Source of the DNA: Fibrobacter succinogenes subsp. succinogenes S85
GTDB lineage: Bacteria > Fibrobacterota > Fibrobacteria > Fibrobacterales > Fibrobacteraceae
Assembly: GCF_000146505.1 (NCBI RefSeq)
Contig: NC_017448.1
Location: forward strand, 1,140,001 to 1,172,000
Length of the DNA: 32,000 nucleotides
Direction: 5' to 3'
Below are positions 838 through 30,062 of this stretch, one piece after another. The notes under the pieces were generated by a model. It saw only the letters and a program-made list of their open reading frames with translations, made no database searches and was not told the origin of the DNA. Position 1 is the first letter of the stretch, and each line of letters starts with the position of its first letter. The position numbers and the translations under genes were made by a program.

Positions 838-1935
838 ATGGGTTTTAAATGCGGCATCGTAGGCCTCCCGAACGTAGGCAAGAGCACAATCTTCAACGCA
901 ATCACTAACGCAGGCGCAGAATCCGCCAACTATCCGTTCTGCACCATCGACCCGAACGTCGGCATGGTCAGCGTCCCGGATGCCCGCCTCGATGAACTTG
1001 TGAAGGTCTACAACCCGAAATCCATCGTCCCGGCCGTTACAGAATTCGTAGATATTGCAGGTCTTGTAAAAGGCGCTTCCAAGGGCGAAGGTCTCGGCAA
1101 CCAGTTCCTCACCCACATCCGCGAATGCGAAGCCATCATGGAAGTGGTGCGCTGCTTTGACGACGAAAACATCATCCACGTGAACGGTTCTGTGGACCCG
1201 ATCCGCGACGTCGAAGTGATTGAAACGGAACTCATCCTCAAGGACTTGGACACTGTCGAAAAGCGCCTCGCTACCGAAGCTAAGAGTGCACGTACCGGCA
1301 ACGCCGAAGCCAAGGCACGCCTCGCCGCTTGCGAACTTTTGAAGACGACGATGGAAGAAGGCCGCGCCGCCCGCACCGTGATGCACGACAGCGAAGAAAT
1401 GGAAGGCATCGTCAAGGACCTCGGACTCCTTACCGCAAAGCCGCTCTTCTACTGCGCCAACGTGAAGGAAGACGACATCCTCACCGGTAACGCTTATGTG
1501 GACCAGCTCAAGGAATACGCCTCCAAGCACGGTCACGACGTGATTGTCATCAGCGGTAAGATCGAAGAAGAACTTTCCGCCATGGAACCGGCTGACAAGA
1601 TCGAATTCCTCAAGGAACTCGGCATGAAGGAATCCGGACTCGATTCCGTTGTCCGCAAGGGTTACGAAATTCTCGGCCTCCGTACGTTCTTCACCGCAGG
1701 CGAAAAGGAATGCCGCGCCTGGACGTTCCACGCAGGCTTCAAGGCCCCGCAGTGCGCAGGCGTCATCCACACGGACTTCGAACGTGGCTTTATCCGCGCC
1801 GAAACTTTGAGCTACGCCGACTTCCTCAAGCACGGCAGCTGGAACGCCGCCAAGGAAGCAGGTCTCGTCCGTACGGAAGGTAAGGAATACCTCGTGCAGG
1901 ATGGCGACATTATGTACTTCCTGTTCAACGTGTAA
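838..1935 (+). CDS. ychF: Redox-regulated / ribosome-binding ATPase YchF (Obg-family GTPase fold)
   Basis: 365 aa. N-terminus [23 protein letters not shown] (G1 P-loop), [10 protein letters not shown] (G3), C-terminal TGS-like [23 protein letters not shown] lies 6 nt upstream of the ATG. Confidence 0.95.
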
Positions 1936-1937
1936 TG

Positions 1938-1981
1938 GCGCCGGTGGCGCAGTAGGATGTAGGCAGTAGACAGTAGGCAGG
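1938..1981 (+). repeat. Short GC hairpin plus CAGTAGG-type heptamer array, copy 1 (in the ychF 3' UTR)
   Basis: GCGCC-GGT-GGCGC starts 2 nt after the TAA stop. It is followed by AGTAGG ATGTAGG CAGTAGA CAGTAGG CAGG. Near-identical syntax occurs at 24693..24736 on the other strand. Confidence 0.75.
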
Positions 1982-2021
1982 ACTGCTATAGGAAAGTCTT
2001 ACTGCTTAATGTTATAGAAAA

Positions 2022-5167: not shown

Positions 5168-8100
5168 TTATTTTGACGAATTCGCCCCCATTTCGAGCAA
5201 GTAACCGCCTTTTGCACCACCCACAGGACCCAATTCAACCTTCCAGTCGGCCAAACGGATAATATCGGGATGGTGTTCAATGACAATGACTGTATCGCCA
5301 CGGGCCGAAAGCCTGCGCAAGAGGTTCCAAAGAATCTGAATGTCCTTCAGGTGGAGGCCTGTTGTCGGCTCATCAAGTAAGTAGACCATTTCCGTAGCCG
5401 GACGGCGGCAAAGTTCTGCAGCAAGTTTCAAACGCTGGGATTCACCACCGCTAAGCGTCGTGACCGGCTGACCGAGTTTCACATACGGGAGGCCCACATC
5501 ACGGAGGCATTCGAGCTTCGGCAAAATTTTCGGCTGATCCTTGAAGAACTCGCAAGCTTCTACGACGCGCATGTCAAGTACATCGGCAATGTTCTTGCCC
5601 TTGAACGTGACTGTAAGCGTTTCCTGATTGTAGCGCTTGCCACCGCAGACTTCGCAAGTTTCCCAGATATCCGAAAGGAAATGCATCTCAACAGCAACGG
5701 CGCCACGGCCTTCGCAAGCGGGGCAACGGCCACGCGCAAGGTTATAACTGAAACGACCGTAATCAAAGCCCTTCATCTTGGACTGTTCAAGTTTGGCAAA
5801 CAGCTTGCGGATATCGTCAAAGACGCCTGTAAAGCTCGCCGGCGTACTGCGCGGCGTTCCCGAAATCGGGCTCTGGTCCACAAGCAAGACTTCGCCGCTC
5901 TGTTTTTTGCGGCCGCGAGCCTGGAACTGCTTTTTGAGCGCCGGGAAAATTTCATCGACAACGAGAGAACTCTTGCCCGAACCCGAAACGCCACAGACAA
6001 CGCTCACCGCCTTCTTGGGGAATTTTACAGACAAGTTCTTAAGGTTGTTCGCCTTGAGGTTTTTGAACTCGTAAAATTCAGTATCATCCGTAATACGCAC
6101 GGGTTCCAACTGGTTTGCCACCGGAGTCGAATACGTGAGGAACTTGACCGTTTCGCTACGCGGGAACTGTTGCAACGCATACGGTTTTGCAAGTTCTGCA
6201 GGAGAGCCTTCGGCAACGACTTCACCACCGAAATCGCCTGCACCAGGGCCCATATCGATAATGTGGTCTGCGGCCTGCATCATCTTAAGATCGTGTTCCA
6301 CAACCACGAGCGTATTGCCAAGGTCACGCAAGCGGTAAAGCGTGTCCAAAAGTTTTGCAGTATCGCTTTCATGTAGTCCGACGGTCGGTTCGTCCAGCAC
6401 GTACAAGACGCCTTCAAGACCGCTACCAATCTGACTTGCCAAGCGGATGCGCTGGGATTCACCGCCCGAAAGCGTATCGCCCGCGCGATCAAGGCCAATG
6501 TAGCCTAACCCCACGCTAATCAAGAAGTCCAAGCGACCAATGATTTCGCGGAGAAGCGGAGACGCAATCGTCGTTTTACTTTGGATGGTCGCAGATGTTG
6601 CATTTTCTTCGTTTGCAAAATCAACTTTCGCAAACCAGTCGCGAGCTTCGGCAATGCTCATGTGATGCACATCCATGATGTTCTTGCCCAAGATGCGCAC
6701 CGCAAGATATTCAGGTTTCAAGCGTTCACCATGGCAATCCGGGCATTCTTCGCCATCCTTGAAATGTCCAAGGCCGAGGCAAGTTTCACAAGCGCCCCAA
6801 TGCGTGTTGAAACTGAAATGTTTCGGGTTGAGTGCGGAATCCATGTACCAGCCACATTCCGGGCAGCCCGGCTTTTCACTAGCCGAGAGGCGTTCTTCGC
6901 CATCGCAATCCACATAGAGGATTCCGTTACCATCGCGGTAGCCGCGTTCAAACGCTTCGACGAGACGAGCACGATTTTCTTCCTTGACGACCACGGAATC
7001 GACCACAGCGAGCAACTGCTTTTCACGCGTGGGCATTTTCGGCAGCGGGAGTTCTACGAGCTTTTTGCCGAGATAAGCCTTGCGGTAACCCTTTTCCGTG
7101 AGAATCTTGGAGAGCTTAATTTCGTCCTTGATTTCGAACGGAGCAAGAATCGTCACCATCTTGTTGAGGTCACGATCGAACGCATGCTGCATCAAGTCGC
7201 CCGTCGCATAAGAGCTGATGGGCTTTCCACAATGGAGGCAGTGAGCCGTACCCACGCGAGCCCACAAAATGCGGAAGTAGTCGTAAATCTCGGTGAGCGT
7301 TGCGACCGTACTGCGCGGGCTCTTGCTTGCACTCTTCTGGTCAATGGCAATCGCAGGTGCCAAGCCCGAAATAGAATCGATGCTACCGCGGTCGGGGCGT
7401 CCCAAGAATCGGCGAGCATAAGTGCTGAGCGTTTCGACAAAGCGGCGCTGGCCTTCGCTAAAGAGCGTATGGAACGCAAGGCTCGACTTGCCCGAGCCCG
7501 AAACGCCCGTAATCACGGTGAGCTTGTGGCGCGGAATCGTCACATCGATGTTCTTGAGGTTGTGCTTGCGAGCGCCATGCACTTCGATATCGAGCGAGTA
7601 ATCTTCGCCCTTTTCATCCGTACGTTCAAAATGCTTGTTTTCGCCATGCTTTTTCGCCAAAACCGGAGCCAAGTAACGCCCCGTCTCCGACTTTTTGCAC
7701 TTGGCAATTTGTTCGGGAGTTCCCGTCGCGATAATGCGGCCGCCATTCACGCCCGCATCCGGGCCAAGGTCAATAATCCAATCCGCACACTTGATTACGT
7801 CGAGGTTGTGTTCAATCACCACGACGCTGTTGCCGAGACTACGCAAGCGGTTCAAGCATTCGAGCAATCGGCGGATATCTTCAAAATGCAAACCGGTTGT
7901 CGGTTCATCAAGCAAGTAAAGCGTCTTGCCCGTACCCGGACGGCGCAGTTCCGAAGCAATCTTCACGCGCTGCGCTTCGCCACCGCTCAGAGTTGTAGAA
8001 GGCTGACCGAGTGTGAGGTAGCCAAGGCCCACTTCGCAAAGGAGCTTGAGCGGTTCTGCAATTTTCGGAATGTCCTTGAAAAATTCAGCGGCTTCGCTGA

Positions 8101-24546: not shown

Positions 24547-24619
24547 GGGGATATAGCTCAGTTGGTAGAGCGACAGGTTCGCAATCTGTAGGTCATGGGT
24601 TCGACTCCCACTATCTCCA
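24547..24619 (+). tRNA. tRNA-Ala (anticodon CGC)
   Basis: Acceptor GGGGATA/TATCTCC containing the G3-U70 alanine identity pair. D arm GCTC-AGTTGGTA-GAGC. Anticodon arm ACAGG-TTCGCAA-TCTGT. T loop TTCGACT. Discriminator A. CCA is not encoded. Confidence 0.92.
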
Positions 24620-24622
24620 CGT

Positions 24623-24658
24623 AAAAGAGGCAAGCTTTCGCTTGCCTCTTTTGTTTTC
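24623..24658. terminator. Bidirectional rho-independent terminator (tRNA-Ala on +, OMP operon on -)
   Basis: About 13-bp stem AAAAGAGGCAAGC / GCTTGCCTCTTTT with loop TTTC, followed by GTTTT. The A-run on the 5' side gives a T-run on the other strand. Confidence 0.85.
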
Positions 24659-24692: not shown

Positions 24693-24736
24693 CCTGCCTA
24701 CTGTCTACTTCCTACTGCCTACTGCGACAGCGTCGC
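24693..24736 (-). repeat. Short GC hairpin plus CAGTAGG-type heptamer array, copy 2 (3' UTR of the 24737..25984 gene)
   Basis: The minus strand reads TAG(stop)-GCGAC-GCT-GTCGC-AGTAGG CAGTAGG AAGTAGA CAGTAGG CAGG. The order of elements is the same as at 1938..1981. Confidence 0.75.
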
Positions 24737-25984
24737 CTAAAAGTCCCATTTCACGCCAAGCTTGAGCTGCGTGAGGACCGTACTTTCGCGATACAATCCC
24801 TTGTAGAAATTGGGCAAATCCATATGTTTATAATTGCGTTCCAGTCCTAAGTAGTAGACCATCTTCCAATACTTCCACGAAACCGAGGCACCCCAAGTGC
24901 CGTTAAACTTCTTGATTTTTTCGTAATCGGAATCAGGACCTCCGACGGCAAAGCCGTAAAACAAGTTCATTTTTGCTTCAACGGTAATGCGGTTCTTAAA
25001 CTTGTACGAAATTCTAGAACGGAATACCGGGCCAAACCATTTGCCCATCGTCTGGCGGTAGACAATACTTTCGACCGATGGTTCCGCAGGGGGATTCGCC
25101 ACATACGCTTCATATTCATCATCGGCCATATAAGCGATACTGTCATTCAAATACTGCCAATATTCATTATAAGTGCTAACCGCTTGTTTATATGTCGCAT
25201 AGGATTGCATAAACGTTTTGTAGTCAAACGCAGAATCGGCTTCGAACTTTGCGCCCACATAGACCGTTCCGTTCAGGCCTTCGGGAGCAGTCCTGTGCCA
25301 CGAGGCGTACGCAGCAAACGACATCGGGCCGGAAGTCTGGTAATAAGCCCAGGCGACAGCTCCAATGCGCTGTTTTTCAAAACGGTACAAGTCCTTTTCG
25401 AACCACACATAAAAATCCGATGAAAGTTCCTTGCCCTCGATGTTAAAATCGTAACCCGCATCCAGGAGCATACCACGCCCCATCAACGTGTATTCCAGCC
25501 CAAGAACCAGGTTCCAGTCATTCGTATCCAAGAGCGACATTTCATCGTTATTCAAGAAGTAGTCACCCTGCACCGAAGCGGCAAACGTATGCGACCAAGT
25601 TGCGGTCGTATAGTCAAAATACGGATTCACATTCAAGAAGAGGTCCCCGCCTTTTTCGGCATCTTCCAGACCTGTTTCCTTGTAGTGCATCCCGTAAAGT
25701 CCAAGTTCACCAGCGATATGGAATTCCCACGGATTCGACGCATTGTCTAAGCTAGACGCGTCGTCATCTTCGACCCCCATAGCCGACTTGTAATCGCGGA
25801 TAATCCCCTGGATTTCTTCGGTGTACTCGCCAGGCAACGCCACCGCTTCTTCAAAGGCCTTAAGAGCGGCAGGAATATCTCCAGCCTCTTCCGCCTTCAT
25901 CGCGCGGTAATACGCCTCCTCCTGCGTCTCGGCAAAGAGCGCAGTCGCAAGCACAAGCATTATCAAACCAAACCAGCGAACCAT
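24737..25984 (-). CDS. Outer-membrane beta-barrel protein with N-terminal TPR-like helical segment (hypothetical)
   Basis: 415 aa. Signal peptide MVRWFGLIMLVLATALFA, helical EEAYYRAMKAEEAGDIPAALKAFEEAV, Tyr/Gly-rich strands, C-terminus LGVKWDF. Its ATG directly abuts the upstream stop (TAGATG). Confidence 0.78.
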   Translation of the reverse strand: MVRWFGLIMLVLATALFAETQEEAYYRAMKAEEAGDIPAALKAFEEAVALPGEYTEEIQGIIRDYKSAMGVEDDDASSLDNASNPWEFHIAGELGLYGMHYKETGLEDAEKGGDLFLNVNPYFDYTTATWSHTFAASVQGDYFLNNDEMSLLDTNDWNLVLGLEYTLMGRGMLLDAGYDFNIEGKELSSDFYVWFEKDLYRFEKQRIGAVAWAYYQTSGPMSFAAYASWHRTAPEGLNGTVYVGAKFEADSAFDYKTFMQSYATYKQAVSTYNEYWQYLNDSIAYMADDEYEAYVANPPAEPSVESIVYRQTMGKWFGPVFRSRISYKFKNRITVEAKMNLFYGFAVGGPDSDYEKIKKFNGTWGASVSWKYWKMVYYLGLERNYKHMDLPNFYKGLYRESTVLTQLKLGVKWDF

Positions 25985-29927: not shown

Positions 29928-29961
29928 TTAGAACTTAGAGCTTAGAACTTAGAACTTAGTG
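29928..29961. repeat. Heptamer tandem repeat (TTAGAAC)n, 4 full units plus 1 partial
   Basis: TTAGAAC TTAGAGC TTAGAAC TTAGAAC TTAGTG, read directly. It starts 23 nt upstream of the TPR lipoprotein ATG. Confidence 0.9.
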
Positions 29962-29973
29962 TTGCATATTTGT

Positions 29974-30008
29974 CAGTAGGCAGTAGGAAGTAGACGGTAG
30001 GAAGTAAT
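29974..30008 (+). repeat. CAGTAGG-type heptamer array, copy 3
   Basis: CAGTAGG CAGTAGG AAGTAGA CGGTAGG AAGTAAT. Its core AGTAGGCAGTAGGAAGTAGACGGTAGG differs from the corresponding segment of copy 2 (reverse complement of 24697..24723) at one position. Confidence 0.85.
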
Positions 30009-30014
30009 ATGCTA

Positions 30015-30062
30015 GCTATGGGGTATGAGCACGGCACTTCGTGCCTTTGGGCTATGGGGTAT
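30015..30062. repeat. 12-bp direct repeat GCTATGGGGTAT x2 flanking a small hairpin GGCAC-TTC-GTGCC
   Basis: Copies at 30015..30026 and 30051..30062. The hairpin lies at about 30033..30045. Confidence 0.7.

Follow-up and report, generated by a model that had tools for sequence, protein, structure and literature searches.

What kind of element occupies the short interval between the stop codon of a gene and its terminator in Fibrobacter succinogenes subsp. succinogenes S85? The question is raised by a 32,000-nt stretch of this genome (contig NC_017448.1, positions 1,140,001 to 1,172,000 of the forward strand; hereafter the window), in which, at positions 1938 to 1981, just past the YchF gene, a small GC hairpin runs into four tandem 7-nt units of the CAGTAGG type. 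A second copy with the same layout and a third copy of the heptamer core lie further along the window. In many bacterial genomes, no long simple repeat is commoner than tandem heptamers, and to our knowledge nobody knows the cause of this excess of 7-base units. The element is probably a ‘solo 5′ arm’, a copy without the gene, from a family of heptamer-repeat elements that fills many spacers, that is near-neutral and whose spread is linked to a cassette. In its full form, a member of this family would consist of a stop codon, a GC hairpin, heptamers in the sense orientation, a PF05635/TIGR02436 gene (23S-rRNA intervening-sequence/Avd-like) and the same heptamers inverted.

The three window copies and their hairpin

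The three stretches read as the preliminary description gave them. Copies 1 and 2 each run from a stop codon through a hairpin, four MRGTAGR heptamers and a spacer to a terminator hairpin, and the third copy of the heptamer core is also present. The features concerned are listed here by window coordinates and strand.

838..1935, +: YchF gene, TAA stop at 1933..1935; the element of copy 1 begins 2 nt past this TAA (TAA-tg)
1938..1950, +: GC mini-hairpin of copy 1, GCGCC-GGT-GGCGC, with a 5-bp stem and a 3-nt loop; the array begins on its last C
1950..1981, +: GTAGG-family array of copy 1, CAGTAGG ATGTAGG CAGTAGA CAGTAGG (1950-1977) and a partial CAGG (1978-1981)
1995..2017, +: segment AGTCTTACTGCTTAATGTTATAG, a degenerate complement of the array of copy 1, with which it pairs in the RNA fold, largely through G.U pairs
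2020-2048 (or to 2058), +: intrinsic terminator-like hairpin of 12 pairs with a T-rich tail, between convergent genes, seen in the fold and in a terminator scan
24737..25984, -: gene of 415 aa without a Pfam match, TAG stop at 24739-24737
24736-24724, -: GC mini-hairpin of copy 2, GCGAC-GCT-GTCGC, immediately past the TAG stop
24693..24724, -: GTAGG-family array of copy 2, CAGTAGG CAGTAGG AAGTAGA CAGTAGG (24724-24697) and CAGG
24623..24652, -: A-tract/U-tract hairpin of copy 2, 13 bp, of the bidirectional terminator type, seen in the RNA fold
29974..30008, +: array of copy 3, CAGTAGG CAGTAGG AAGTAGA CGGTAGG AAGTAAT, without a hairpin and antisense to both neighbours
29928..29959, +: TTAGAAC x4.6 array of a different family, adjoining copy 3

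Copies 1 and 2, the two window copies that follow genes, are insertions exactly at the stop codon; both run in the sense direction and precede a terminator. Tandem Repeats Finder reports all three arrays, at 4.6-4.7 copies each. The RNA fold of the whole 120-nt stretch of copy 1 has z = -5.1, and its second, inverted arm is degenerate and rich in G.U pairs; copies 2 and 3 have no such arm. No PF05635/TIGR02436 open reading frame (ORF) is found at any of the three window copies, which makes them at most gene-less derivatives of the cassette, and an Rfam scan of the window at the gathering score returns two tRNAs only, with no match at the elements. As for the downstream terminators claimed in the preliminary description, that of copy 1 is recovered by both fold and scan; that of copy 2 appears in the fold and is left uncalled by the simple terminator scan, because its T run sits within the stem. 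A tRNA-Ala (CGC; window 24547-24620, +) ends 3 nt from this A-tract/U-tract hairpin, on the other strand, and the single hairpin probably terminates both the tRNA and the gene that precedes copy 2. Beside copy 3, at 30022-30062, two GCTATGGGGTAT words surround a GC hairpin (GCACGGCAC-TTC-GTGCC), and the spacer of copy 3 as a whole is a mosaic of modules.

The hairpins of copies 1 and 2 differ in sequence and share their geometry, which had been taken to mean that structure is kept through changes on both sides of the stem. A search of the genus bears this out. The pattern GCNNCNNNGNNGCAGTRGNNNGT, in which two stem pairs are left free, has 47 matches in the genus, and both free pairs are complementary in 32 of them (1/16 expected, p about 1e-27). 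The complementary matches comprise 4 stem types and 12 loop sequences; most of the non-complementary ones come from two conserved coding sequences. Behind the orthologous YchF gene, the closest relative (G018) has the same stem with the loop AGC, and another congener (G007) has GCGGC-TTC-GCCGC. Within the S85 genome there are 850 GC hairpins with a 5-bp stem and a 3-nt loop, and the 5-mer that comes next is skewed towards GTTCT (26), TACAG (21), AGTTG (16) and AGTAG (8), with about 1.7 expected; all of these are starts of heptamer arrays. A hairpin followed by AGTAG or AGTGG heptamers occurs at 7 loci of the genome, at least 5 of them directly past a stop codon, and the stems there are GCGGC, GCGCC, GCGAC or GTGGC. 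The hairpin is a real junction module, and its structural conservation holds.

Most GTAGG arrays are hairpin-less. A GC hairpin is found at 3 of 35, against a background of 3.4%, and the hairpin was therefore rejected as a general feature of the arrays; it belongs to a subset of them.

Heptamer arrays across the genome and at stop codons

The S85 genome (G000) is a single contig of 3,843,004 bp with 48% G+C. Arrays were defined by at least three units at 85% self-identity or more, and genes were taken from a crude in-house ORF caller that leaves 12% of the genome non-coding. So defined, the genome holds 283 arrays of period 7, against 1 of period 8, 3 of period 10 and none of period 11 or 13, and 219 of the 283 are intergenic, within that non-coding 12%. 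The main families are AACTTAG (62), GACGAGA (51), GACGAAA (43), MRGTAGR (about 42) and AGTGGTT (21). The GTAGG family, to which the window copies belong, counts 43 arrays of 3-6 units each, built from the small unit set CAGTAGG, AAGTAGA, CGGTAGG and AAGTAGG with a 14-nt super-period. The pattern GTAGRNNGTAGRNNGTAGR has 71 matches in the genome, and the same pattern read backwards has none.

No same-family inverted pairs of arrays of at least three units were found within 400 nt of each other in this genome, so that in S85 the majority of GTAGG arrays do not act as arms of a hairpin. A complementary partner within 80 nt accompanies only 4 of 35 GTAGG arrays, against 38 of 58 AACTTAG arrays. Many AACTTAG arrays are 5′ arms of long hairpins (for instance G000:2372-2412, 5576-5621 and 62512-62548), whose 3′ arm reads CTAAGTTCTAAG-AGCGMAGCGG-KCTAAGTTCTGCCAACT, in many cases with a GC mini-hairpin at its end. 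GACGARA arrays, whose unit has no stop codon on either strand, lie inside ORFs of the crude gene set in 39 of 94 cases. Other dispersed intergenic repeats also adjoin heptamer arrays, namely TGTCATTCCCGC...GCGGGAATCTCC hairpins and GTCATCCTGAGC...GAAGGATC elements (around G000 positions 76930 and 186560, and at loci of G018 and G006).

The placement of the arrays depends on their strand. Among GTAGG arrays in sense, 19 of 22 have their start no more than 20 nt from the upstream stop, against 1 of 20 antisense cases (Fisher p = 6e-8), the 19 sense starts ranging from -20 to +14 nt from the stop. The corresponding counts are 23/28 against 1/26 for AACTTAG, and 37/39 against 5/47 for any TAG lattice of at least four units (p = 2e-16). 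The stop itself stands in the phase of the lattice in 11 of those 19 GTAGG arrays and in 24 of the 37 TAG lattices of at least four units, where 1/7 would be expected; such phasing is automatic at negative distances, and among the non-overlapping GTAGG arrays within 20 nt it is seen in 5 of 13. In six cases the GTAGG array overlaps or supplies the stop, at distances of -6, -13 and -20 nt. The stop-free GACGARA arrays are still biased (9/15 against 4/24), more weakly than AACTTAG, which argues that frame closing is not the general cause.

For 21 of the 37 arrays that abut a stop, a terminator-like hairpin lies downstream within 170 nt, and for 14 of the other 16 a co-directional gene comes next, so that these arrays sit inside transcription units. 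Nearly half of the GTAGG arrays are antisense to or upstream of genes. The neighbours seen (YchF, a TPR protein, unknowns) have no gene class in common. Orientation relative to replication follows no general rule, since the families disagree (leading strand in 15 of 43 GTAGG and 33 of 49 AACTTAG arrays). Nor does the sense strand have a folding advantage: it is the more stable one in 31 of 83 co-directional array-bearing spacers, against 361 of 581 array-free ones. The biases of strand and position across the genome are those of the recurrent, oriented, stop-anchored intergenic element ahead of a terminator that had been proposed from the window. With the covarying hairpin, they set it apart from a dispersed microsatellite that would have no bias in position or strand and no covariation.

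Turnover at orthologous sites and the PF05635 cassette

The arrays change fast: 7-nt units are gained and lost, and whole arrays are replaced, in many cases by a different heptamer family in the same position. Past the YchF stop, 11 congeners have one unit, four units, one of five other heptamer families, or no array. G018 and G002 carry a hairpin and one CAGTAGG unit there, G007 a different hairpin and an AGTGGYT array with the same tail GGACTGCTATA, and other congeners unrelated heptamer arrays from the stop onward (GGCTCGR, YTAGGGR, AATGTGG, TCAGGYT). The comparison with G018 covered 15 of the 43 GTAGG loci, with flanks mostly 93-99% identical and three flanks at 80-88%. Two of the 15 arrays are kept, one of these with a 14-nt indel; five are swapped for another heptamer family at the same place; one is a clean 38-39-nt presence/absence right after a TAA (G000:793396); and the remaining ones are replaced by unrelated sequence.

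Copy 2 is an insertion, as its site is empty but otherwise conserved in G018 and G006, and in G002 only a hairpin, GCGGC-TTT-GCCG, is found there. G006 retains copy 3 with the units permuted, and the TTAGAAC array beside it is replaced by TAGTTAY units in G006 and G002. In two cases, the empty G018 site reads GAGTAAA where S85 has GAGTAGA or GAGTAAG followed by units. One locus of G018 (L100, on contig G018:C10) has an extra insertion of ~560 bp just after a conserved GTAGG array (ortholog G000:877991) that is absent from S85.

The architecture of the arrays is identical with that of the arms of a cassette. The sole PF05635 gene of the S85 genome (G000:3717688-3718005, 125.6 bits), predicted to encode a four-helix-bundle protein, lies between lysS and the next gene. 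Its product matches TIGR02436 (126 bits), the Avd model of diversity-generating retroelements weakly, and PDB 2GSC from Xanthomonas (7e-19). One side of the gene carries TAG-ACGAGAGAACG, the hairpin GTCGC-TTC-GCGGC and TACAGACGAGAGACGAAAG, the other TAA-TCTCTCG x4; both arms are of the GACGAGA family. A reverse transcriptase was considered as a maker of the repeats and set aside; the only RVT_1 match of the genome (G000:C1:2050503-2050922, -) falls in an 838-aa open frame far from this cassette.

PF05635-type genes are present in 13 of 18 congeners, and most of the 35 such genes of relatives examined lie within inverted heptamer arms whose family varies by species. Three orthologous genes (L137, L139, L140) have a left arm only, and several others (L029, L146) have no readable arms. 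At the lysS site, G006, G007 and G013 have cassettes with GTAGG-family arms; that of G013 shows a TAG stop, the hairpin CTAGGC-GAA-GCCTAG and then TAGTAGA CAGTAGA CGGTAGG, in the same order as window copies 1 and 2. Arms are of the GACGAGA type in G017 and G016 and of the AGTGGTT type in G014. The lysS site of genomes without the gene has a 24-nt right-arm remnant (G018), an empty 6-nt spacer (G004, G005) or a gene-less heptamer hairpin (G008). Protein clades track the arm family: 11 label changes suffice, which is the lowest number possible, and shuffled labels average 14.2; shared descent could explain this agreement. The GTAGG-armed proteins of G007 (L019) and G006 (L020) are near-identical (branch lengths 0.009 and 0.016) and the genomes differ more elsewhere, which could reflect horizontal transfer of the cassette or contamination of the G007 assembly (8%).

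The abundance of dispersed arrays mostly follows the arm type, a pattern that is suggestive rather than proven. The match counts below give, for each genome, the cassette arms, then GTAGR x3, then GACGARA x3.

G007: arms GTAGG (second gene AATGTGT); 340; 62
G013: arms GTAGG; 197; 21
G006: arms GTAGG, AGTTACT; 179; 29
G002: arms GACGAGA, GGTTTTA; 80; 70
G000 (S85): arms GACGAGA; 71; 92
G017: arms GACGAGA; 68; 142
G009: GTAGG right arm; 63; 0
G018: no cassette; 14; 13

In most other congeners, GTAGR x3 matches number at most 20. GTAGR is highest in the three GTAGG-armed genomes G007, G013 and G006, and GACGARA in the GACGAGA-armed G017, G000 and G002. The density of period-7 arrays per 100 kb, a figure drawn from small samples of kin genomes, is 6.2 in G000, 9.0 in G006, 5.0 in G013, 1.5 in G010 and 11.0 in G025, all with the gene; the 2.3 of G028, which also has the gene, are the cassette's own arms only. 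Without the gene, the values are 1.5 in G018, 3.0 in G005, 0.5 in G004 and 0 in G026, G027, G029 and G030. The case of G025 is independent of Fibrobacter, as this member of a different genus has four cassette genes and 11 arrays per 100 kb, against 0 in its cassette-less congeners G027 and G029 (~100 kb each).

Origin of the arrays and their relation to known heptamer repeats

In the reading we favour, new copies would be seeded on the stop codon, which would act as the first lattice point because the unit carries TAG, a proposal to which the two empty G018 sites with GAGTAAA relate. Their copying or maintenance would depend on a process tied to the cassette whose arms they match, and they may later be reshaped by replication slippage. 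The arrays would then be selfish or near-neutral DNA, not gene-specific regulators, with the closing of three frames and the added structure in the 3′ untranslated region (UTR) as side effects. A more specific proposal is that the four-helix-bundle cassette itself generates or disperses heptamer arrays, with a specificity set by the sequence of its own arms, and that the gene-less post-stop arrays are its offspring; this we put forward only tentatively.

Several points weigh against a role for the cassette. S85 has 43 GTAGG arrays despite having no GTAGG-armed cassette gene, arrays persist in genomes without the gene (1.5, 3.0 and 0.5 per 100 kb in G018, G005 and G004), and G010 has three cassette genes yet 1.5 arrays per 100 kb. 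A third family gives a mixed picture, with 24 matches in G012 (TGAGTTA arms) and only 6 in G006 (AGTTACT arms). The compared genomes are kin, so that the abundance pattern could stem from shared ancestry, and the genome with the highest GTAGR count, G007, is 8% contaminated. It is equally conceivable that the arrays came first and the cassette gene landed in them as a passenger, and we know of no biochemical activity of the four-helix-bundle protein that would copy repeats. The 5′ ends given by the ORF caller make distances to starts unreliable, with stop positions unaffected. From their position at a stop, in sense and upstream of a terminator, the window copies should be transcribed as 3′ UTR.

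Unit-number differences among relatives (one against four units after ychF, the 14-nt indel, the permuted units), the persistence of arrays in gene-less genomes and the many different heptamers at one site across species would all suit plain slippage microsatellites. On this view a polymerase would slip preferentially by 7 nt, arrays would arise anywhere without any dedicated element or protein, selection would cull the harmful ones and the four-helix-bundle gene would merely sit inside; the idea is in print, going by its citation in PMC4679880 (Mrazek et al., 2007). We hold this to be unlikely. Random seeds should give locus-specific heptamers, yet most arrays fall into five families and one degenerate unit set recurs at 43 loci; copies arrive with a hairpin that lies outside the repeat; the strand rule is strong also for AACTTAG, which has stops on both strands, and weaker for the stop-free GACGARA; and the two congeners of G025 without any arrays in ~100 kb each are hard to square with a general property of polymerase. 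Still less likely is an RNA element of 3′ UTRs and operon spacers selected by the host, whose heptamers would bind a cold-shock-domain or S1-type protein (~7 nt each) and so tune decay, termination or ribosome release. Such an element would fit the sense rule, the position between stop and terminator and the structurally conserved hairpin that adjoins. Binding of CspB to heptamer repeats, with one protein on each unit, has been reported (reviewed in PMC4679880), and most Xanthomonas repeats are transcribed (PMC4692102). However, the arrays lack the conservation expected of the regulatory module envisaged in the preliminary description (2 of 15 kept in the closest relative), sequence families can take one another's place at a single site, the neighbours seen share no gene class, the sense strand folds no better (31/83 against 361/581) and nearly half of the GTAGG arrays lie antisense to or upstream of genes. 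The CsrA-type sites suggested at the same time have no protein to bind them, since CsrA (PF02599) is absent from this 99.99% complete genome.

Three or more TAG-bearing units close all three reading frames, because 7 is not a multiple of 3, and could serve as a back-up stop device that catches read-through or frameshifted ribosomes. TAG stands on the sense strand in most families, arrays begin at or supply the stop (the six GTAGG cases at -6, -13 and -20 nt), and the same remark has been made for TAACTGA repeats (PMC4679880). This explanation is nevertheless very improbable, as GACGARA is stop-free and yet similarly placed (9/15 against 4/24) and frames the cassette gene, periods of 4 or 5 would be equally suitable but period 7 alone is enriched, arrays are freely lost between relatives and many copies are not behind genes. 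The REP-like nature first suggested can be all but dismissed. The units contain GTAG and adjoin a small GC palindrome, and they are dispersed, intergenic and mosaic like bacterial interspersed mosaic elements (BIMEs), which would make them repetitive extragenic palindromic (REP) elements, that is GTAG-tagged palindromes mobilised by a REP-associated tyrosine transposase (RAYT). Yet no Y1_Tnp/RAYT gene (PF01797, E <= 0.01) is found in the 99.99% complete genome, where control genomes do match; the GTAG is tandem and 3′ of the hairpin, not on its 5′ side; the palindrome measures 13 nt, not 20-40; and a period-7 tandem structure is not a feature of REP. The likeness to enterobacterial REP/BIME elements thus ends with small dispersed intergenic palindrome mosaics, often between stop and terminator, that carry a GTAG motif; a RAYT gene is missing, the core is a tandem 7-nt array and the hairpin has 13 nt.

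Closer parallels exist among heptameric repeats. The short tandemly repeated repetitive (STRR) sequences of heterocystous cyanobacteria comprise several heptamer families per genome, tandem and non-coding as in Fibrobacter, and differ in phylum and in their units. The STRR of Calothrix PCC 7601 consists of three tandem heptanucleotides, as cited in PMC4692102. A general excess of 7-nt units has been noted (Mrazek et al., 2007, in the form cited by PMC4679880), and the same stop-related placement rule has been described for the heptameric repeats (GGGAATC)n of Xanthomonas and (GGGGAYT)n of Nostoc (Rehm et al., 2015, PMC4692102). These long simple-sequence repeats (LSSR) resemble the Fibrobacter arrays in having tandem 7-nt units, usually in ~4 copies, an excess of period 7 only, an intergenic bias and no link to a gene class. 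Unlike them, the Fibrobacter units lack the G-tracts of quadruplex sequences, several unrelated families occur side by side and replace one another at a single site, many arrays are joined by a GC mini-hairpin and many AACTTAG arrays form long hairpins; moreover, increased stability is reported around the Xanthomonas and Nostoc repeats (PMC4692102), whereas turnover in Fibrobacter is very fast. The TAACTGA direct repeats of marine Beggiatoaceae, Cyanobacteria and Bacteroidetes (MacGregor, 2015, PMC4679880) likewise place stops in all forward frames, come in 2-6 copies per set, are intergenic and patchy among relatives and in some cases overlap the upstream stop. However, they stand mostly just upstream of start codons and have one dominant heptamer, in contrast to the several stop-anchored families of Fibrobacter, and no cassette gene is linked to them in that paper. 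In the Coxiella burnetii intervening sequence (IVS) of 23S rRNA, GACAGAT x2-3, in a number varying by strain, precedes the S23p ORF (Warrier et al., 2016, PMC4990558), and excision of the stem by RNase III is known for this IVS only (PMC4990558). Its layout, a PF05635-type four-helix-bundle ORF within inverted repeats with tandem heptamers before the ORF, is that of the Fibrobacter cassettes, although the latter lie between protein genes and not in rRNA, and the window copies are ORF-less and mostly lack a second arm.

The element, at first thought undescribed, therefore belongs to the published heptameric simple-sequence repeats (PMC4692102, PMC4679880), and the GTAGG arrays are a new lineage of the repeats known from Xanthomonas, Nostoc, Beggiatoa and the STRR. 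A literature search for Fibrobacter together with heptamer repeats found nothing relevant. What is new here are the statistics on the stop lattice, the covariation in the hairpin, the turnover seen between orthologous sites, the occurrence of GTAGG arrays as cassette arms in sister species and the family-specific abundance with its exceptions.

For genome annotation, it matters that stop codons are provided or adjoined by these arrays, whose replacement outpaces that of the surrounding genes. The genus amounts to a natural experiment, in which close relatives differ in the presence of the cassette and in its arm heptamer and the abundance of the dispersed family mostly follows, and a cultivable rumen bacterium offers a practical system for testing repeat spread driven by a cassette. 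If the cassette does spread the arrays, the excess of 7-nt repeats in bacteria would gain a protein-linked cause, in place of a property of DNA polymerase.

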